Shown here piece by piece: positions 1,734 to 63,516 of a DNA stretch of 64,000 nt. Where the stretch lies: the IMG/VR virus record IMGVR_UViG_3300042896_000648, positions 14,549 through 78,548 of that record. One strand, 5' to 3'. Under the pieces are notes generated by a model. It had not been told where the DNA came from, searched no databases, and saw only the letters and a list, made by a program, of their open reading frames with translations. The stretch's first letter is position 1. The number at the start of each line of letters is the position of its first letter. The DNA is from a virus. Made by a program: the position numbers and the translations under genes.

Positions 1734-3442
1734 GAATAAAAAGCCTAGCTACCAAAATAGTATACGATTTAGAATTTTCTAAGTCAGGAGAAAACACAAG
1801 TACCTGTCCAGACTGTATTGATGATAGAAAAAATAAGAAGGCAAAGCCTTTCTCGTTTAATGTTTCCAAAGGTCGTGGCTACTGCAATCATTGTAACGCA
1901 GCTTTTGTGGAAGAAACCTACGGAAAGGAATTTACAAAACCCGTTTTTGACGAAACATTCAAGAGCCTAAAACCGGCTTGGGTTGATAATTTCCTAGCAA
2001 AGAGAAGTATTTCAGAATCTACCCTTACTAAAATGAAGGTAAGCGAAAAGAATGGAATGATAGCTTATCCATTTTTTAGAAAAGGAGAATTAATTAATGT
2101 CAAGTATCGTGGAGCAAATAAAGAGTTTCGTCTTGAATCAGGAGCAGAACTTTGTTGGTATAATTATGATGCAATTTTGAATTTTAAAGAAATTGTAATA
2201 GTTGAAGGAGAAACAGATTGTCTTTCATTTATCGAATCAGGAATAGAAAACTGTATTTCAGTTCCAAATGGTGCAAATGTAGGCAAGATGGAATATTTCG
2301 ACAATTCTATTTCAGACCTAGATAAAATTGAGCGATTTTATATCTGTACAGATGCCGATACTAAGGGTATGGAAATAAGAGACGAACTCATTAGAAGGCT
2401 TGGAGAAGATAAGTGTTTTACTTGCAATTTAAGGCAATATAAAGACGCAAATGAATATCTTATAGGACAAGGCAGAGAAAGTCTCTTAGAAGTAATTAAA
2501 ACAGCAAAAAACGTAAAGATAAATGGAGTAATTGAATTCAATGATTTTAAGAACGAATTTCGTGACTTACATAAGAATGGACTTCAACCAGGGAAAACAA
2601 TCGGTGCTTTTCTTGACAAGTTAATTACTTGGGAAACTGGAAGGCTTGCTATATTCAGCGGAGTTCCTTCGTGTGGAAAAAGTGAATTAGTTGATTTTAT
2701 TAATATTAAACTTTCAATGAGGCACGGTTGGAAAGTAGCTTATTACTCGCCTGAAAGTCACCCTTCTCATTGTCATTCTGCTCGATTATCTGAAAAAATG
2801 GCAGGCTGTAAGTTTGAGAAAATAACAGATGATTCACTTGATTTATGCGAAAGATTTATTCAGGATAACTTTTTTTGGATTGATACAGATGAAAATAGCG
2901 TACTTGATGATATACTTCTTAAATTCAAGCAACTAATTAAAACAAAGGGAGTCAAAATATTGGTTATTGATCCGTGGAATTGTATCGAGAATGACGGAGG
3001 GTATTTAGACCAAGGCCGTTTACTTCAAAAAATAGTTAAATTTGCCAGAAGAAACAATGTCTTGATTATATTAGTTGCACACCCAAGGAAATTAGCAACA
3101 AATAAAGATACAAGAAAATTTGAAATGCCTACTATGTATGATATTGCCGGCAGTTCTGATTTTTGGAATATGTGCGATTATGGCGTTTTAATTCAGCGAG
3201 AGCAGGAGGATAATACGTTGAAGTTTTTAAACAATGGTAAGATTCAAATAGCTAAAGTTAAAACTAAGAATCTAGGGGAGCAAGGTGTGGCTAATTTTAA
3301 GTACGGTTATTATAGTGGTAGGTATTTTGATGAAACAGAATCTTTTGACGATTCAAATTGGCTAAATCCCACAGAAATAATATTAACTATGCCAATACCT
3401 ATGAATAACAATATTTTTAATGATATTGAAGTCCCTTTTTAA
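1730..3442 (+). CDS. T7 gp4/Twinkle-like DNA primase-helicase
   Basis: Zn finger CPDC..CNHC, TOPRIM EGETD..DAD, Walker A GVPSCGKS, IDPW, AHPRK and IAGSS SF4 helicase motifs. Confidence 0.92.
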   Translation: MRIKSLATKIVYDLEFSKSGENTSTCPDCIDDRKNKKAKPFSFNVSKGRGYCNHCNAAFVEETYGKEFTKPVFDETFKSLKPAWVDNFLAKRSISESTLTKMKVSEKNGMIAYPFFRKGELINVKYRGANKEFRLESGAELCWYNYDAILNFKEIVIVEGETDCLSFIESGIENCISVPNGANVGKMEYFDNSISDLDKIERFYICTDADTKGMEIRDELIRRLGEDKCFTCNLRQYKDANEYLIGQGRESLLEVIKTAKNVKINGVIEFNDFKNEFRDLHKNGLQPGKTIGAFLDKLITWETGRLAIFSGVPSCGKSELVDFINIKLSMRHGWKVAYYSPESHPSHCHSARLSEKMAGCKFEKITDDSLDLCERFIQDNFFWIDTDENSVLDDILLKFKQLIKTKGVKILVIDPWNCIENDGGYLDQGRLLQKIVKFARRNNVLIILVAHPRKLATNKDTRKFEMPTMYDIAGSSDFWNMCDYGVLIQREQEDNTLKFLNNGKIQIAKVKTKNLGEQGVANFKYGYYSGRYFDETESFDDSNWLNPTEIILTMPIPMNNNIFNDIEVPF

Positions 3443-3463
3443 ATAATTATAAAATAAAATAAA

Positions 3464-4126
3464 ATGAACGTAAAATTAGTATCAATTACAAAGTCTTTAA
3501 TAAAAGAAGCAGATTTATCACCTGAAGAATTAATTGTTTATGTAGCAAGGGTTTCAAATCCTTCTAATCAATTAAATTTTGAAACATCAGATAGGCTTAT
3601 TTCTTATATGGTAAAAAATAAGCATTGGTCTCCTTTTGAAATGTGTGATATGACTATTGAAATTATAACAAGTAGAGGCATTTCAGCACAGATTTTAAGG
3701 CATAAATCATTTTTTTTCCAGGAATTTTCACAAAGGTATTCAGAAGTAACTGATTTAGAGCCTATTCAGTTAAGAAAGTCGGGAACGACAAATAGGCAAA
3801 GTAGTTCAGAAGAATTTGACCCAACCATTTGGGATGATTTAAAAGTTAAAGCTTCATTAGCAATTAAAGAACACTTAGAAGAAAGTCAGAGATTATATGA
3901 ATCTTTACTTGAAGCAGGAGTAGCAAAAGAATGCGCAAGATTTATCCTTCCTTTAACAACACAAACTAAAATATATATGAAAGGAAGTATTAGAAGTTGG
4001 ATACACTATTTACAGGTTAGGTCTGATAGCCACACACAATTAGAGCATCAACAAATCGCATTTGCTATTTTAGAGATATTTAAAATTAACTTTCCTAATA
4101 TTTCAAAAGCGTTAAGTTTAAACTAA
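3464..4126 (+). CDS. thyX: Flavin-dependent thymidylate synthase
   Basis: HWSPFE, RHKSFFFQEFSQRY (RHx7SxR signature) and AKECARFILP. Confidence 0.95.
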   Translation: MNVKLVSITKSLIKEADLSPEELIVYVARVSNPSNQLNFETSDRLISYMVKNKHWSPFEMCDMTIEIITSRGISAQILRHKSFFFQEFSQRYSEVTDLEPIQLRKSGTTNRQSSSEEFDPTIWDDLKVKASLAIKEHLEESQRLYESLLEAGVAKECARFILPLTTQTKIYMKGSIRSWIHYLQVRSDSHTQLEHQQIAFAILEIFKINFPNISKALSLN

Positions 4127-7752: not shown

Positions 7753-10146
7753 GAAACTTAAAAGAATTGTATGAGATAGTACTAGAGAATTTTGATTATT
7801 ATATTGGGAAGGGTGGAATTTGTAATATTAGCAACCAGTTATCTTTTTATGAAATAATCACAATCCAAGAATCAATTTTACTTGATGGCGACATCGAGGC
7901 GCAAACAGGAGCAGTATTCACATACGCTTGGCCTCGCACTCCCGCAGGAAATATAGAAAGAAAAGAATTTATTAAAAAACGAATAAACGAACTATGATAC
8001 TAAAAATCCTACTAGGCGAGGAAGAAACTTCGCCATCAAAACCAGAAGTTGTTATCATTAACAACGTCAAGTACAATAAGCAACTCTTTGAGCGGTTTAT
8101 GGAAATCTCGGAATGTACTGATTATAAGGATAAGGAATATCCCTCTCTTGATAATGTTAAGACTACCGTAGTAGACGATAGGCCAAACTTTTCAGATTGG
8201 TACACCGAGCTGAAGACAAAGGAACTCGATTATGATTGGGATACGATTCAAGAAGATTGGATGAAAACAAATATTGGATTAATTCAATTTCTTAAACTAA
8301 ACTATAACATACCTACAAAAAAATGAAAATCTTAATCAGTATCATCATTACAATCCTAGTCTTGTTTGGGCTTGCTGTCCGCCAAGCACAGAAAGATTTA
8401 AAAAACATCAAAGACATAGATAATCACGATTTATTCCAATGAAAGAAACAATAGAAGAGTTTGCAGATAAAACGTATCCTTATTATGGAGACACAGAATT
8501 AAGGGAGGCTGTTATAATTGGTGCAAATTGGCAATCTGAAAGAAGTTATAGTGAGGAAGATTTAAAACAAGCTTACTTAGATGGATGTGAAATACAATTA
8601 AATAATATCTATCATTTAGATAAATGGTTTAAAAAATTTAAAAAAAAATAATATGAAAGAAACAATAGAAGAAGCTACTGAAAAGTATTTAAAAACAGTT
8701 AAAGGATTAAATTATAGAAACTTATATGATTTAAGTAATCAGCAAGAATTAGCATTTAAAGATGGTGCTAATTGGCAATTAGAAAGAATGTATAGTGATA
8801 TGGAGGAATATGCAACATTCTGTATAGAATGCGATAGAAATGGACTATCTCCATTACAAGCAAAAGGATATTTCGAACAATTAAGACAATATAAATAAAA
8901 TATGAAAAACGGAGAAAGAAACCAAGAAAACCTTCCTATTGAGGCTAGCCCTTGTAAGTACATACGCAAGTTCGGCATTGCGTGGGATTATACCGAAAAG
9001 CCTAAAGACGTTTTTATTAACGCTCTTACATTTGACGATAATCGAATATACCCTTATTCTTGTCACGACATTATGTATCCCGAAAGGCATTACGCTAACT
9101 TTCGTAAGGTCAAGGAATATGCCGGTCAAATAGAGTTTACTGATGAAAAAATTCAAGAGATTATGGCACATGACGAATCAGGAAAATCATTAGATCGTAT
9201 TTACGCACTCATTAACAGAGTGAACTATAATCTAGTTTACTTTAATAAAGAGAAGGTCGACTTCATATTGAACGATAACCGCAAAAGACTGATTCACAAC
9301 CTAACAAATCTGAAATCAGAAGAGAATCGTGCAGAATTATATTTAACAAACATTTTAATGAGAATGATATGAGATACTTAATAATAACAAAGGATTACGA
9401 ACCTTACTATACTAATGATATGGAAGAGTTCGATTTTGACAGTGACCTATACGTCATTAACTTAATCACAGACGAATACTATAACGGTAAGGTTTGGAAG
9501 AAAATTCAAAAAATTATATGATAAAGATAATAACAAAAATTGAAGACGATGACTTGCTAGAATATCTATTTAAGAGAGTTATGGAATTTAATAGAAAGAA
9601 AGATAGCTATGGTATGGGTTTTATGGTAGGGCAAAGCACTATAATTACAAAGCAACATAATAGGGATTTTTATGAAAGATATTCGTGTAATATCTATAAA
9701 GTTAAGTCAGGAATAATAGCAAGATTAAGTAAAATAAAAGAATAATGGAATTAGAAATAAAACACTTAGCGCCATATTTGCCGTATGGATTAACATTTTT
9801 AATAGAAAGTAAACACGATAGTAAAGAGCCTAATATTAATGAATTAAAGTCAATAGACATTGGGTTGAAAATGGTAAATTTTGGATGGGGTAATGCAAAA
9901 TATTTTACTGAAATAAGACCAATATTGAAAAATAAGATACATTTATATAATCTTCAAATTGAAATACTAAATAAGTGGGGAGATGGATTATCTGATAAAG
10001 CTAAGGGGTATTGGCTAAAAGAAATGATAGAAAATATGATTAATTCAACATACGATTCATTAAGGTTTGATGAAGTAGAGTTTATGCTAGAAAACCATAT
10101 TGATGTATTTGGCCTAATAGATAAAGGACTTGCAATAAAAATATAA
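7749..10146 (+). other. Island of small early-type hypothetical ORFs (7749, 7994, 8439, 8653, 8902, 9518, 9745)
   Basis: Tightly packed co-oriented ORFs. 8439 and 8653 share the MKETIEE..GANWQ.ER motif. Confidence 0.6.
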
Positions 10147-17042: not shown

Positions 17043-17636
17043 TTATTTATAAATTCCTATTTCTTTATTATATTGTTCACGCAATTCTTGTTGTTCACGT
17101 TTCGTATACACACTCCCTTGTCTTTGAAGTTCCTTTAGTATCTTATACGCTTTAGTGTGTGCTATTTTTAGCTCTTCTTTGTCATGTTTAAGGTCTTTAT
17201 ATACTTGTCTTAGGCTTTCTATATACTCGGTGTATTCAGCTCCGTATCTGGCAGTTAATCCTAATCTATACTCGATTAAGTTTGCGCTTAAATGCATATT
17301 ACAATGTACGCATTGGCCATGTATGTTATGTAGGTTAAAGGTTATGTTCTTATTGTTACCACTAGGGTAGTAATGCCCTCCTTGTTCTACTTTTCCTACA
17401 CAGCTTATGCAACTCTGCTCTCGGTCTATTAGTCTAGCTATGTGGTTTATAGTTTTCTGAAGTTTAATCATACAGTCTTTTACTGTTTCTGTTTTTTCTT
17501 CAAGTACCTTTTTCCTTTTTTTCCAACCATCGCTGTCTAGTTTTTCACGCCCTATTTTTATAGCACATTCTATACAGAATTTCTGCGTTGTTTTGTATTG
17601 AAAAAACTCCTCGCCACATTCTTTACATTTTTTCAT
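17043..17636 (-). CDS. ninG: NinG/Rap-like recombination endonuclease
   Basis: CKECG..C, RD..CISC, GHYY, FNLHNIHGQCVHCN..LSANL.EYR pattern. Confidence 0.8.
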   Translation of the reverse strand: MKKCKECGEEFFQYKTTQKFCIECAIKIGREKLDSDGWKKRKKVLEEKTETVKDCMIKLQKTINHIARLIDREQSCISCVGKVEQGGHYYPSGNNKNITFNLHNIHGQCVHCNMHLSANLIEYRLGLTARYGAEYTEYIESLRQVYKDLKHDKEELKIAHTKAYKILKELQRQGSVYTKREQQELREQYNKEIGIYK

Positions 17637-18290: not shown

Positions 18291-18476
18291 AATTCCTGCG
18301 AGCTATCGCCCGTTTGCTATTCTAAAAAATATTAAAAATTAAATATTGACTATTTACTGGTTAAAAGGCACTAAGCGGCCAGCTTAGAACATGGTATTGT
18401 GGCAATAAAAAGCCCACACACTAGCCATAAACGCACATTTTTTACTGACCACAACACCCCGCCGTTATAGGGCATT

Positions 18477-18617
18477 TCAATTACCTATATTAAACCTTGT
18501 CCAATTTCCAGAACCGTATTCTTTATTTATTTCAAACTCCCATTTATGTCTAGGTTCATTGGTGTAAAATGAACCAATAAAAATATTTCCATTATATACT
18601 TCTAATTTTGTCCACAT
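18477..18617 (-). CDS. 46-aa cassette ORF (MWTKLEVYNG...)
   Basis: Read by hand. It fills the space between two attC-like sites. Confidence 0.5.
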   Translation of the reverse strand: MWTKLEVYNGNIFIGSFYTNEPRHKWEFEINKEYGSGNWTRFNIGN

Positions 18618-18718
18618 AACTAAAAACGCCCTATAACATGGCATACACAAAAGCGGGGCGGAACGCTTATCATGTATGTTCGGGTTAAAGAAGCCCCGCC
18701 TTCGTGTATGCTTTGACG

Positions 18719-18868
18719 TTACCTTTTACAATACCACTCACAAATAGTTTCACCATCCTTCTTCTTGAAGTCAAACTCACAGTACGCTTGCCAATAGCTA
18801 GGCGTTGCCGTCTTTCTATAGCAGTCTTTAAGTTCACACTTTTTGTTGGTACACATTGTTATATCCAT
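18719..18868 (-). CDS. Small Cys-rich protein (MDITMCTNKKC...)
   Basis: Read by hand. The TAA stop overlaps the TAAC core of the attC-like site. Confidence 0.55.
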   Translation of the reverse strand: MDITMCTNKKCELKDCYRKTATPSYWQAYCEFDFKKKDGETICEWYCKR

Positions 18869-40052: not shown

Positions 40053-40890
40053 CTGAATCGGGTTAAAAATGAAAAAAAATGTTTCTTAAAATGCTATTTG
40101 AACACGTTCCTTGCAGTCACTTACTTAAAAGACTTTATGATACTCTTTATAGTTATCTTTCCGTCTTGTCTCATGTGGTTCAAAAAGTTCTCTGCCTGTA
40201 TTTTGTCAAAGCCATGCCCTATTATCATTTCAATAAGGAAGTTTATTTCTTCTTCGTCTAGGTCTTTTATCTCAGCACCTACTTGCTTAAACTTTACTTT
40301 AAGTAGTGGTACTAGCTTTATCAAGATTAGGAGAAATCTCTCTCTGCCTACAATACTCTTTACTAATACTAGTATTGTTTCTACTATTTTTTGTATGTTT
40401 TCTATGTTCATATTCGCTTTAAAATTGGTTCTTATTTAAAATTGGTTCTATATGTTTCTTTTTGGTTTTTTTGGAATTATTACTTTGTCTACTGCACTGT
40501 CAGAATCCTTTAATTCATCCTTTAATCTCGCTATCTTTATTTTTAAATTATTTTTAAAAAAAGAATATATCTGTTTGTCTGTTTTTATTTTACTTATATA
40601 TATCTTATAATAAGGCTTATAAGCAGTATAGTCTGGCTTATAAGCACTATTTGGATTATCTATATGATAATGGTCACAGTTTAAGTATCTTGCTACTTTT
40701 TGTATCTCTAGTATATTTGGCTCTTTTTCTGTTTCTATTGTCGCTATGGTAGTTGTGTATGGGTCTGATAAGCAACCGTATTCGGTTTTATCCAAAACTA
40801 CTTTTCCATCTACCACATTTACTATATCAATATTAGGAAATATTTCCTTTGCTTTATCTATATTCATTTTTTATTTATTTTACTTAGCTA

Positions 40891-40966
40891 CGTTATTCGT
40901 TTCACTCACGCCTCGTTATTCGCTTTACTCATATTCAACTACGCCTCGTTATTCGCTTTGTTCATG
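40891..40966 (-). repeat. Tandem 33-bp-period repeat encoding mini-ORFs
   Basis: ACGCCTCGTTATTCGCTTT at 40908 and 40941, partial copy at 40891. Confidence 0.7.
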
Positions 40967-40970
40967 TTCT

Positions 40971-41504
40971 TTAAGCTTCGTTAGTTGATATTTTTCCTGT
41001 TGTTGTTACAAATCTTTTTACTGCACTAGCGGGTCGCACCTTATATTCGTTTCGTGCTCCTAGTAGCCTGCTTTTGCTTATTGGCATTATATTCACCATG
41101 TCATTCTGATTACCGCCTATTACATGAAAGTTCTTACTGTCTTCCCCTACATACATTGCTACGTGTCCGCCACCTCCTACTCTACTAAATACTAATATGT
41201 CGCCTACTGCTTCTTCGCCTTTCTTTACTTCATTGCCAAACTTTAGCCAATTTCTTGCCCACAGATAATTATCAGGTACTACTTTCCCTGCTCTATGAGC
41301 GCATATTGCCATTGCTAATCCACACCAAGCTATTTCATCTTTTGTGTACATTAGGCTTTCTTGCCCTCCTATTTCTTTTGCCCATCCTATTATTTCTTTG
41401 TTGTTCTCAAAGCCTGCTCTCTCTTCTGTTCCATAAAGTTTTAGTGCTTCGGCCACCATTTTAGGCGGGTTTTCTAATAAATAATTATATTGTTTTGGTA
41501 TCAT
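40971..41504 (-). CDS. Endolysin, TIGR02594 / NlpC-P60-CHAP-like peptidase
   Basis: DEIAWCG, AR.WL.FG, GDILVF.R.GGGHV..Y, GGNQ.D.V motifs. Confidence 0.85.
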   Translation of the reverse strand: MIPKQYNYLLENPPKMVAEALKLYGTEERAGFENNKEIIGWAKEIGGQESLMYTKDEIAWCGLAMAICAHRAGKVVPDNYLWARNWLKFGNEVKKGEEAVGDILVFSRVGGGGHVAMYVGEDSKNFHVIGGNQNDMVNIMPISKSRLLGARNEYKVRPASAVKRFVTTTGKISTNEA

Positions 41505-58531: not shown

Positions 58532-59287
58532 TAATGAATTTAAATAAAAAAGAATGAAAATAGAAGTAAATAATATAACTGTAGAAGCTTGCTTAGAGTG
58601 GCTTTCCAAAAGTCCAGCTAATGTATTAATTGATATTAATATTAGCGAAATTATTAGATACTTGTTAAAGGAGGTCAGCGATTTAAAAGAAATAGTAAAT
58701 AAAATTGAATATGAAAGAGAGCAACAAGAATATTTAGAAATGGGGGATGATCTATGAAAAATATAAAAAAGAAGTTAAAATATGAATTTAAATAAAAACG
58801 AATGAAAATAAAAGTAACAGAGGATTTGGGTATCCAATTAGAAGAAGTTTTTAGTGGATTAACTCTAAAAACAGAGAGTGGCGAAACAATGTCAATTTGT
58901 ATGCGAGATAGTGGATTTGAGTTCAATTATGAAGGTAATTGGTATTTTGCAAAAGAAGGTTATGTTGAACCATTCCTCAAATCAGTTAGAGATAATTATT
59001 TAGTTTCTGAACTACAAAGGCACGAACATAATTCAGATATAAATGCAATGCCTATTAATAATGGTTTTTATATGGATGGTTTGATTTAAAAAATAATGAA
59101 AGTAAAAATAAACCTGCGTGATTATGTGTATACATGTGGCGATGGCTGTTGTACTGATTACGGAACTGTAACTACGGTTAATGGAGTTGAACTAGACTGT
59201 CATAACGAAGATAGAGTAACAATACTTACAAAAGTACTCGAACACTTGGGATATGAGGTGGAGATAGAGGAAAGTTATGATGGTGAA

Positions 59288-59895
59288 TAACGGAACGCAA
59301 CTAAACGCAGTTTAAATTTAATAATATGGATGAACAAATAAATGGTGTAGTTGAAACTATCCAACAACTTGAAAAGGAAAACGCAGAGCTTAAATTGCGT
59401 TTAGTTGCTGTTATGCAACGAAGTGAACAGTTAGAAGCCTTTATTGATGAATATATAGAAGCTTGGGAAGATGGTATGGCTGGTGATAGTGGATTAGTAT
59501 ATGATGCAAGGAAGTTAAAGGCTTCTAATTGCACATAACTTTAAAAATAACCGCAGTTTGCCTATACGGTTAGTTGATTCGGCAAATTGAGGTTATTGAT
59601 TGTTATATTCTCGGCTTTTTTTCACTAACAAATTAAATAAAAAATCATGAAAATAGTAAAGTACAAATGCAATCTTTGTCAAGAAGAAAAAGAAAGAGCA
59701 GAATTGACTGCTTTTTACTTTAAATGCGATATTATTCCTCAAAGATACGTTTTGGATAAAAGCAAAATAGATGAATGTGATAAGCATATTTGCGAAAAAT
59801 GTATAGAAACAATAATTGCAAATATTATTTAGCAAAATTATAGCTTGAGTAGCTTTCGCTAGAAAGTTGCTCAAGCTGGAATATAACAACTATAT
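59288..59895 (-). mobile_element. Integron-like cassette array 2 (two attC-like sites plus terminal half-site)
   Basis: Inverted repeats 59297-59315/59390-59408 and 59546-59562/59581-59597 framed by TAAC..GTTA. Cassette ends GTTATG/CATAAC and GTTATATTC/GAATATAAC. Confidence 0.65.
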
Positions 59896-61560: not shown

Positions 61561-61908
61561 ATGCCAATAAATTATAAATTATATCCTCCTGATTGGAGTG
61601 AAATAAGAAAAAGAATTTTAGAGCGAGCCAATGATTCTTGTGAAATGTGTGGATTAAATAATAAGTCTAAAATCCACTCATTTAAAGAAAATAAAGTTAC
61701 TATTTGGCGTGATTTAAGCTATGCCGAATGGTTAGATAGAGGTTCGCCAAAGCATATTACGGTTGTTTTAACTATCGCACATTTAGATCACGATGAAACT
61801 AACCACGAAGTTAAAGACGATAGATTAATGGCTTTATGTCAGCTTTGTCATTTAAGATACGATATAGAAGAAAAAAATAAAAGAAGGATTTCAAAATGGA
61901 AGAAGTAG
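61561..61908 (+). CDS. HNH endonuclease
   Basis: YP.DW..IR..IL.RA...CE.CG..VLTIAHLDHD..N..L.ALCQ.CHL.YD. Confidence 0.85.
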   Translation: MPINYKLYPPDWSEIRKRILERANDSCEMCGLNNKSKIHSFKENKVTIWRDLSYAEWLDRGSPKHITVVLTIAHLDHDETNHEVKDDRLMALCQLCHLRYDIEEKNKRRISKWKK

Positions 61909-62093: not shown

Positions 62094-62167
62094 GCATTTG
62101 TGGTGAAGTGGTTTAACATCTCGGCTTGCAACACCGATATTCGGGGGTTCGAATCCCTCCAAATGCT
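62094..62167 (+). tRNA. trnC: tRNA-Cys(GCA)
   Basis: GCATTTG/CAAATGC acceptor, loop TTGCAAC, GGTTCGAATCC T-arm, U73 discriminator. No encoded CCA. Confidence 0.85.
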
Positions 62168-62186
62168 CTAACTAAACAACAAGATT

Positions 62187-62339
62187 ATGCCACTAAAGAA
62201 AGGAAAAAAGAATGTTGGTAAAAACATTCGAGAAGAAAAAAGAAAGCACCCTGAAATGAGTGATAAACAAGTACTTGCTATAGCTTTGTCGGCCGCAGGA
62301 GTAAAGAAAAAGAAAAAGAAGAAAAAGAAGAAAGAATGA
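62187..62339 (+). CDS. Small basic protein (MPLKKGKK..QVLAIALS..poly-K)
   Basis: 50-aa ORF read by hand, coupled to ORF 62336. Confidence 0.6.
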   Translation: MPLKKGKKNVGKNIREEKRKHPEMSDKQVLAIALSAAGVKKKKKKKKKKE

Positions 62340-62946
62340 GAAAAGCACACGGTTACATAATCGAAAGAGTTATTTATTATGATAAAGAACTTGGTATTAC
62401 TGATTCATATTCGCAAAATAATAAATATTACGCAACTTTAAAGCACGCAGAAGAAGCAATAAGTAAAATAAGAGAAAATTATCCTACTTGCGAGTTTCGA
62501 TTAGTTGAAATGTTTGAAACCTATACAGGAAAGTGTAGCGAAGGAATACATTGGTATGTTTGGTTTTACGAAAATAATAGGCCGGTAAAAAGAAAGTGTA
62601 GATTTTGTGAAAAAGAAGAAATAATTTTATAAAAATGAATATACCAGAAAATTTACTCGATGATGAAGGTTATCCAACAGAAGAAATACTTGAATTCATT
62701 ACCAAATACGAACCTAATGAGGATATTGAAGACTTCGTGGAACTAATTAGATCTATTTGGTGGCGTAAAGGTTGGGGCTTTAAAAAATATCGGTATAAAG
62801 GCCGAACTAAATTAGAACTACATACAGGCGGTTGGAGCGGTAATGAAGAGATAATGTCAGCCATAGAATCCAATCGCATACTAGGTATTTTCCTTAGGAA
62901 GACTATGTGGAAAAGAGGCGGACATTATTATTATGAATATTTTTAA
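62336..62946 (+). other. Two hypothetical ORFs (62336-62632, 62635-62946)
   Basis: Coupled ORFs. The second has an LHTGGWSGNE..W.RGGHY motif. Confidence 0.6.
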
Positions 62947-62976
62947 AAAATAATTTTTATTTATGATAAATTATAT

Positions 62977-62984
62977 TATATTTG
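62977..62984 (+). promoter_or_regulatory. Promoter -7 element of the tRNA operon (TATATTTG)
   Basis: Consensus match 4 nt before the leader ATG. Confidence 0.7.
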
Positions 62985-62988
62985 CATT

Positions 62989-63039
62989 ATGAAAAGAATT
63001 TTAACATATTGCTATTCTAGTTGGTCGACCAAAAGTTGA
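62989..63039 (+). CDS. Putative attenuator leader peptide MKRILTYCYSSWSTKS
   Basis: 16-codon, probably leaderless ORF with the run TAT TGC TAT TCT AGT TGG TCG. Confidence 0.7.
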   Translation: MKRILTYCYSSWSTKS

Positions 63040-63069
63040 ATCAAGTAGAATATCTGTGTAAAAGCTTAT

Positions 63070-63101
63070 ACCTCCTTGATTCACTTCTTGGAGGTTTTTT
63101 T
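63070..63101 (+). terminator. Conditional (attenuator) terminator before the tRNA operon
   Basis: ACCTCC..GGAGGT plus T-run, overlapped by the alternative helix TGAATCAAG/CTTGATTCA. Confidence 0.75.
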
Positions 63102-63108
63102 ATTATAC

Positions 63109-63181
63109 GCATCTCAATGCTAAGGCAAAGCGAGTTGGTCTCCAAAACCGACTGAATTAGGTTCGATACCTAAGAGGTGTG
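63109..63181 (+). tRNA. trnW: tRNA-Trp(CCA)
   Basis: Cloverleaf with anticodon loop CTCCAAA. Confidence 0.85.
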
Positions 63182-63190
63182 CAGTTATAT

Positions 63191-63272
63191 TGTAAAGTTG
63201 AGCAGGTGGTGAGCAACATAGGTCTGTAAAACCTATCCTTCGGGTGTGCTGGTTCGATTCCAGTCTTTACAA
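63191..63272 (+). tRNA. trnY: tRNA-Tyr(GTA)
   Basis: TGTAAAG/CTTTACA acceptor, loop CTGTAAA, variable arm CCTTCGGG. Confidence 0.88.
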
Positions 63273-63298
63273 CAAGTATCGGTAGGGTACTTAATTAT

Positions 63299-63381
63299 GG
63301 AGGTGGTCTGAATGGACGAAGACACGGTCTTGAAAACCGCTGGCCGTAAAAGGCTTACAGGTTCGATTCCTGTTGCCTCCG
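63299..63381 (+). tRNA. trnS: tRNA-Ser(TGA)
   Basis: GGAGGTG/TGCCTCC acceptor, loop CTTGAAA, long variable arm, G73. Confidence 0.88.
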
Positions 63382-63386
63382 CATAT

Positions 63387-63471
63387 AGAAGGTATTGTAA
63401 GTGGCTATACTAACTCGTTTGCTAAACGAACAGCGGTAAAACGCTTTAGGGTTCGACTCCCTAATCTTCTG
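63387..63471 (+). tRNA. trnS: tRNA-Ser(GCT)
   Basis: AGAAGGT/ATCTTCT acceptor, loop TTGCTAA, long variable arm, G73. Confidence 0.85.
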
Positions 63472-63516
63472 CAAAAATATTTTTAAAAAATAATTTTTAT
63501 TTTGAACTTTATATTA

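Follow-up and report, generated by a model that had tools for sequence, protein, structure and literature searches.

The interval 59288-59887 of the window, by which we mean the whole stretch of 64,000 nucleotides analyzed here (positions 14549-78548 of a virus record that is complete at 78,548 bp and has direct terminal repeats), is reasonably likely to be a two-cassette array of the recombinase-less CALIN type, belonging to an integron-like system typical of Bacteroidota phages. Read in this way, the array is an orphan of a widespread and little-described phage variant of the integron, the textbook system of plug-in genes in bacteria. What is new here is a start codon and an N-terminal module, which reads as a leucine zipper, embedded in an attC site, together with the joining of that module to 17 bodies. 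Integron-like phage arrays bear on how cassettes are made and on how they are expressed far from a promoter. The phage originates from lake water, its record is AT-rich, and the only DNA matches of the record among GenBank phages are Flavobacterium phages.

The first site of the array, element A (59288-59413, plus strand, 126 nt), belongs to a long class of attC-like sites of about 125 nt. It opens with TAAC (59288-59291), continues with a 5-nt spacer, the stem, a 68-nt A/T-rich loop and a 1-nt spacer, and closes with GTTA (59410-59413). Its repeat arms (59297-59315 and 59390-59408) measure 19 nt, are 95% complementary and stand 74 nt apart; in our structural scan the stem extends to 22 bp (59297-59318 / 59387-59408), with 19 Watson-Crick, two G.T and one A.C pairs. 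On its left side the element overlaps the 3' box of the upstream cassette (59277-59291, plus strand, of the form ..A-T-N6-TAAC). Element C (59536-59605, plus strand, 70 nt) is a short site composed of TAAC (59536-59539), two arms (59546-59562 / 59581-59597) forming 15 Watson-Crick pairs, one G.T and one mismatch, and GTTA (59602-59605), with spacers between; the arm motif CGCAGTTT is common to both elements. The body of cassette b (59410-59539, plus strand) carries its own box pair GTTATG/CATAAC (59410-59415 / 59534-59539), which comprises 6 bp and three further pairs with a 2-nt bulge. Cassette c (59602-59887, plus strand) consists of the box GTTATATTC, ORF 59647-59832 encoding a Cys-rich protein of 61 aa, a hairpin (59837-59857 / 59862-59882) and the box GAATATAAC, and its two boxes (59602-59610 / 59879-59887) pair over 9 bp. 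Since no further hairpin follows cassette c, we place the end of the array at 59887. ORF 59096-59290 and ORF 59326-59538 each terminate at the TAA of a TAAC core, the former at 59288-59290. A second long-range inverted repeat (59428-59443 / 59516-59531, plus strand, 16 nt, 94%) lies wholly within ORF 59326, its spacing of 72 nt being nearly that of element A.

A related array 1 is found on the minus strand. Its element 1 (18634-18721, minus strand) is of an 88-nt class and of the same family as elements A and C, with TAAC, a 6-nt spacer, a 19-bp stem containing two G.T pairs, a 3-nt spacer and GTTATAGGGCG. The adjoining cassette (18464-18637, minus strand) holds a 46-aa ORF and the box pair GTTATAGGGCgTTT / AAAtGCCCTATAAC, a widespread pair with 13 Watson-Crick pairs and a G.T at position 11. 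Element 2 (18384-18467, minus strand) is a weaker member with the right core GTTCTAAG. An ORF at 17043-17636, NinG/Rap-like by eye, lies about 1 kb from array 1, and Polaribacter phage P12002L likewise has NinG/Rap near its array. Elsewhere in the window an HNH endonuclease gene (PHROG match, 61561-61908) is located 1.7 kb downstream of array 2, the array at 59288-59887; four to five phage tRNA genes (Cys, Trp, Tyr, Ser) cluster at 62094-63472, and a unit of about 20 nt (AAAGCGAATAACGAGGCGT..) occurs in two to three direct copies on the minus strand at about 40870-40985, just 5' of a gene start.

The preliminary description of this DNA had drawn attention to both TAAC..GTTA hairpins of array 2 (with 18 of 19 arm positions matching in element A), to the pairing of cassette ends with each other (GTTATG/CATAAC and GTTATATTC/GAATATAAC), to the overlap of the two stop codons with TAAC, to a start of ORF 59326 inside the loop with GTT read in frame as Val, and to a loop-initiated mini-ORF in array 1, and had likened the sites to integron attC. 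These observations hold: the GTTA of element A lies one base to the right of its literal reading, and the mini-ORF, MISVPPRFCVCHVIGRF followed by a stop, is confirmed on the minus strand. On their own both tetramers are frequent, with about one per 75 nt, and the TAAC..GTTA frame surrounds three of the 156 hairpins of the window against about 0.26 expected, an estimate from tetramer frequency. Only four convincing sites of the family are present in the 64 kb, namely elements A and C and the two of array 1, all of them AAC/GTT-core hairpins with unpaired spacers. As called by our own structural scan, elements A and C are 123 nt apart in a genome without recombinase, which is the CALIN configuration. 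Rfam searches returned no family apart from tRNAs, and GenBank phages contain nothing that matches element A or a conserved left end at the DNA level.

The gene that starts in element A, ORF 59326-59538 (plus strand, 70 aa), has its codons 1-29 in the loop and right arm, Val29 being the GTT at 59410-59412, and the predicted fold leaves its AUG unpaired, within an A/U-rich stretch. In homologues of the 70-residue protein the N-terminal 28-29 residues are nearly invariant, and what follows cannot be aligned: the module shows 72-97% identity across 31 proteins, whose C-terminal parts form 17 clusters unrelated to one another. Val is followed by S, M, R or I, in every case with a codon that begins with A, so that GTTA itself is kept. 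At the DNA level, in the five contexts for which DNA is available, homology begins exactly at (Y)AACG and stops at TGTTA(G/T), with unrelated flanks on both sides; the homology to element A in L002, L010, L017 and L028 has these same borders. Such sharp borders in five unrelated contexts provide what we regard, judging from the sequences of the relatives, as the decisive support against chance. Most variation among the 21 loop codons affects the third position (11 : 6 : 1 by visual count), and invariant hydrophobic residues and Asn19 recur at a spacing of about seven residues (I5, I12, N19; L15, L22), a pattern that reads as leucine-zipper heptads with a buried Asn. Taken together, third-position variation and the heptad-like pattern make the module look like a real, selected peptide. 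An in-frame ATG in the GTTATG box (59413-59415, plus strand) offers a possible alternative start; it could be the true one and would give a 41-aa product devoid of the module. Met directly follows Val in 8 of the 31 module homologues. A leader peptide of a modified-peptide precursor was considered and dropped, as the bodies include ordinary domains such as DUF551. Back-translated searches of viral contigs for the N-terminal module gave no confirmed match, and when the C-terminal half alone was used as query, the window's own protein was the sole match.

Two further observations concern such modules. The 10.3-kb contig L017, which carries the same N-terminal module, contains a 307-aa ORF (2611-3534) with an HxHxH-type motif (HPHFHF); its resemblance to a rolling-circle Rep suggests that a small and perhaps single-stranded replicon also bears the module. 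A further protein family (..DLADYQFNYPTIKELEKENAELK..), encoded by the gut or rumen contigs L006, L011, L014, L018 and L027, similarly combines a shared zipper-like N-terminal part with unrelated C-terminal parts.

The four sites of the window belong to a large family. The structural scan recovered 178 distinct elements in phage contigs of Bacteroidota type, falling into length classes of about 48, 88 and 125 nt, with 94 elements of 120-129 nt. These relatives share the architecture and differ in sequence, and they include other loop-initiated ORFs. When 61 long elements of at most 75% mutual identity were aligned, compensatory double changes were observed at all 16 of the 16 predicted stem pairs. 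The box 16-mer AAATGCCCTATAACGG of array 1 was found in 56 viral contigs, where cassettes bounded by it as an inverted repeat carry 34 unrelated ORFs; the cargo of the family includes several DNA methyltransferases. Pairing of boxes was evaluated on 111 cassettes lying between consecutive elements. Per position (5-9 and 12-14), pairing between the two boxes of one cassette reaches 68-78%; it is 27-53% when partners are shuffled and 20-48% for boxes across the hairpin. Position 11 forms a G.T in 75 of the 111 cassettes; its T is present in the 3' box of 108/111, though a synonymous AAC codon would pair perfectly, and the adjacent A12 in 88/111. Features of this kind are hallmarks of integron cassettes. 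The window's own box pairs in array 2 are short (6 and 9 bp).

Starts inside the loop are common in the family. Among 110 long sites, 66 possess an ATG in the loop that opens an ORF of 35 aa or more reading through GTTA. The reading frame at GTT is not random, as the preliminary description had anticipated: 42 of these 66 ORFs are in frame 0 (GTT = Val), 15 in frame 2 (G-TTA) and nine in frame 1, and the frame tracks the type of box, GTTAGC giving Val-Ser, GTTATG Val-Met and GTTACC Leu-Pro. The loop peptides form several families ranging from short polar leaders to modules of 30 residues. In L047 (1451-1593), L058, L061, L064 and further long elements, loops without an ORF start frequently contain a 12-14-nt motif (..ACAAATGTTCAA..) repeated directly two or three times; these repeats may be protein-binding sites or promoter elements. 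The hairpin cores have unrelated DNA on both flanks. We searched for identical cassette bodies in different arrays and found none, leaving no junction to map directly. Two contigs otherwise 99% identical, L030 (681-929) and L033 (1169-1474), differ by the replacement of one small gene, whose left border is at the start codon and whose right border is near a TAAC.

The enzymatic partner of these sites was sought in the window phage and in its relatives. The complete 78,548-bp genome encodes no tyrosine recombinase detectable with PF00589 (positive controls were recovered in 14/14 genomes), and no serine recombinase or Y1 transposase was found in it. Array 2 is thus an orphan of CALIN type rather than a complete integron, which would have an integron-type tyrosine recombinase beside it, and for the same reason it may be inert today. 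An IS200/IS605-type single-strand transposon and a serine invertase were discarded, their respective enzymes being missing from the genome, as was DNA inversion of the box-flanked segment, since the inverted reading meets a stop after four codons. Relatives are better equipped. The 16-mer AAATGCCCTATAACGG occurs in at least 120 reference-genome contigs, mostly of Bacteroidota, arranged in arrays, and in four of the five genomes examined a co-oriented tyrosine recombinase lies 2-23 kb upstream of the array. These bacterial array-linked recombinases are IntI/Xer-like and 371-409 aa long. Three of them best match NF040815, 'tyrosine recombinase/integron integrase', with 206-221 bits against a cut-off of 220, and also match the integron-integrase model below its cut-off; NF040815 is the best NCBIfam match across the recombinases associated with the family (170-221 bits for the same cut-off). 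On the viral side, 3 of 10 large carrier phage contigs encode a homologue of 270-276 aa; in one of them (L219) a 17-element array adjoins a 270-aa recombinase (9257-10069, minus strand) that is 37% identical to the Lutibacter enzyme (E 3e-50). One Bacteroidota chromosome (G013, CP058707) exhibits six copies of the 14-mer box and further elements on one strand over about 430 kb (3.49-3.96 Mb), with an IntI/Xer-like recombinase at 3.986 Mb, and this spread may represent a very large or fragmented chromosomal array.

The polarity of the sites is central to their interpretation. On the strand reading TAACG..TGTTA, non-canonical stem pairs are G.T in 270 cases and A.C in 41, a strand asymmetry of the kind that characterizes attC. 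Genes are found on this G.T-rich strand in 54 viral cases versus one on the opposite strand; in bacterial arrays the figures are 2 versus 20. The bacterial arrays therefore display the classical layout of integron cassettes, a top-strand gene followed by its attC, which is not that of the viral loci. G:T mispairs are enriched on the bottom strand of attC, the one that is recombined; cleavage takes place between A and C of AAC on that strand, and recombination of the top strand occurs at low frequency (Nivina 2016, PMC5027507).

This strand bias also bears on an explanation that dispenses with site-specific recombination today. The hairpins would act mainly in RNA, in transcript stability, processing or insulated translation starts, and mosaicism would arise by homologous recombination between co-infecting phages at conserved linkers, a mechanism put forward for the promoter-stem-loop cassettes of T4-type phages. 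The complete genome without recombinase suits this explanation, as do the ability of G.U pairs to stabilize the sense transcript, the predicted RNA fold of the region, far better than that of shuffled sequence (z = -4.15), and the unrelated DNA on both sides of hairpin cores. Assembly data point the same way: contigs of the source run break at element C (window 59547-59643), where the assembly graph branches, and 59582-59643 recurs between different flanks in low-depth contigs from two lake samples, which suggests a conserved linker in the local phage population. Contigs of the source run and of one small-share lake run, compared with the window, showed no joints, a result with no bearing on excision. 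However, the G.T-rich strand is antisense to the genes in bacterial arrays, so that the bias belongs to the DNA site and not to the mRNA. Moreover, cassette-specific box pairing with a fixed G.T is hard to explain by linker homology alone, and homologous recombinases head the arrays of relatives. We consider this explanation unlikely.

Under the integron-like reading that we prefer, the position of the cut follows from polarity. The G.T bias, the reversed orientation of genes in bacterial arrays headed by a recombinase, and the AA|C rule for the bottom strand jointly indicate that the phage sense strand would correspond to the attC bottom strand. By analogy with classical integrons, the canonical cut would then fall at TAA|C, on the left edge of the hairpin and immediately after the previous stop, leaving the Val GTT in the uncleaved box. 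For element A this predicts a cut between 59290 and 59291. Cleavage thus probably takes place at TAA|C and not at the Val codon, where the preliminary description had located the crossover (G/TT).

According to that earlier proposal, the sense strand would be the attC top strand, cassettes would be of the type 'gene then attC', and each integration would fuse the resident loop-encoded N-terminus to the arriving cassette. Several facts fit it: homology breaks right after GTTA in 31 proteins and five DNA contexts, frame 0 dominates, the longer unpaired spacer is on the 5' arm of the sense strand, and top-strand recombination is known at low frequency (Nivina 2016, PMC5027507). It is nevertheless at odds with the G.T mispairs, which mark the sense strand as bottom strand, and with the genes of same-family recombinase-headed bacterial arrays, which are on the other strand. 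A unit made of a gene plus its attC does not predict that the upstream flanks of element A be unrelated in all five contexts. The type of hairpin, in addition, tracks the downstream box and not the upstream one: hairpin cores at least 80% alike account for 23 of 350 pairs with a common downstream box and for 1 of 324 with a common upstream box, in sets ascertained via a single box type; other elements show the same tendency only weakly (4 against 2 of 53 pairs). N-terminus and body would accordingly travel as one cassette instead of being joined anew at each integration, and crossover at G|TT appears quite improbable to us. From the earlier proposal we retain the start supplied by the loop and the swappable N-terminus, one module being combined with 17 bodies, and we abandon their fusion by crossover at Val. 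The breakpoint that it predicted is encountered in mirror image, one N-terminus being joined at GTTA to 17 C-termini; the same C-terminal half behind other N-termini was not found.

A third explanation, by chance inverted repeats or ordinary intrinsic terminators between small genes, can draw on the commonness of TAAC and GTTA in an AT-rich genome and on the hairpin 59837-59882 after ORF 59647, which looks like a plain terminator stem, but it is barely credible given that element A has no T-run and a coding right arm and that an 18/19 repeat within 100 nt is unexpected by chance, and it appears already contradicted by the sharp homology borders in unrelated contigs, the box pairing and the massive covariation.

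The favored mechanism may then be outlined as follows. Each hairpin would be an attC-like site built of AAC/GTT cores, unpaired spacers and a stem that keeps its structure and not its sequence. With phage genes on the best-folding strand, the attC bottom strand, a hairpin and the gene body behind it probably constitute one 'attC-first' cassette, made of C, hairpin, GTTA box, gene and TAA, whose boundary would lie right after the stop codon of the previous gene (TAA|C). The A/T-rich unpaired loop of long sites (about 125 nt) would often hold the start codon; translation would begin there, melt the right arm and read the GTTA box as Val-Ser or Val-Met. Element A would in this manner endow ORF 59326 with a 29-residue leucine-zipper N-terminus. 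The occurrence of one module before 17 bodies would reflect different cassettes with one attC subfamily, as in Vibrio cholerae repeats. Several points count against this scheme: the missing recombinase, the short box pairs and few sites of the window, and the failure of the family member P12002L_attC1 to recombine with IntI1 (Qi et al. 2023, PMC9892861). Nor does it account for the in-frame joining of different bodies to one attC.

More tentatively, and with chances that we put somewhat below even, Bacteroidota phages could run a mirror-image integron. They would use a site family of their hosts' chromosomes, where it has the classical orientation, with the phage genes on the bottom strand, and a single sequence would serve as folded recombination site in DNA and as insulated translation-start module in mRNA, adding a functional N-terminal domain, here a dimerizing zipper, to any body behind it. 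If so, hosts and phages would trade defense and counter-defense genes in one cassette currency. A recombination site carrying a start codon and a conserved N-terminal domain, in a reversed orientation specific to phages, would offer a novel means of ensuring that swapped genes are expressed, and would also explain the shuffling of small early, often anti-restriction, genes among Bacteroidota phages. These ideas can be tested directly, as sites of the same family are present in a cultured relative, Polaribacter phage P12002L.

Comparison with known systems places the family close to integrons. The T4-type internal-protein locus and promoter-stem-loop cassettes are hyperplastic sets of small early genes in which a conserved short N-terminal leader or a regulatory hairpin is joined to unrelated bodies, and shuffling at the conserved sequence has been proposed. 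Unlike the present family, they are not known to have AAC/GTT cores, cassette-specific box pairing or an associated tyrosine recombinase. The Vibrio cholerae repeats (VCR) of the superintegron are homogeneous sites of about 120-130 nt found on many unrelated cassettes. They resemble the present case in that near-uniform sites accompany many bodies, as does one module before 17 bodies here. VCRs lie behind their genes, and none is known to encode the N-terminus of the next protein. A VCR size of 133 bp has been given (Nivina 2016, PMC5027507).

The closest described case is that of phage P12002L. The sections of Qi et al. (2023, PMC9892861) drawn on here report 17 CALINs in 10,705 phage genomes, one of which belongs to this virulent phage; its site P12002L_attC1, called by HattCI, was the one of six sites that IntI1 did not recombine, and PH101_attC2, which is similar to it, did recombine. 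The primer sequence given there for P12002L_attC1 corresponds to a family element located between two methyltransferase genes of P12002L, with the same arm motif GCTAAACG and right flank as L010. Both systems thus associate an attC cluster without integrase in a phage of a Bacteroidota host with DNA methyltransferases as frequent cargo. Reversed gene polarity, extended paired boxes and loop-encoded starts are not described in those sections of Qi et al. (2023, PMC9892861).

With the attC sites and cassettes of integrons (IntI, attI, Pc) the family has in common imperfect hairpins, AAC/GTT cores, unpaired spacers, a variable loop and a structure kept while sequence varies. A cassette likewise begins with bases that can pair with the inverse core of its own site, G:T mispairs concentrate on one strand, and a tyrosine recombinase accompanies arrays in bacterial and some phage relatives; as expected of an integron-like system of Bacteroidota and their phages, same-family arrays abut a small Xer-like tyrosine recombinase in these relatives. 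The differences are that the window genome is devoid of integrase, that the recombinases of relatives are Xer-like, of 270-409 aa and below the NCBIfam integron-integrase cut-off, that box pairing reaches about 14 bp and includes a fixed G.T at position 11, and that phage genes on the bottom strand are preceded by their site, with start codons inside the loop. Starts outside the cassette are encountered in class 1 integrons, as with ORF-11 in attI1 and with aacA4 variants whose N-termini depend on context. There, as here, the start lies outside the cassette body and the N-terminus depends on the neighboring site; those cases are sporadic and occur at attI, whereas the sites of Bacteroidota phages would harbor a conserved and selected peptide module inside attC, recurring in many cassettes.
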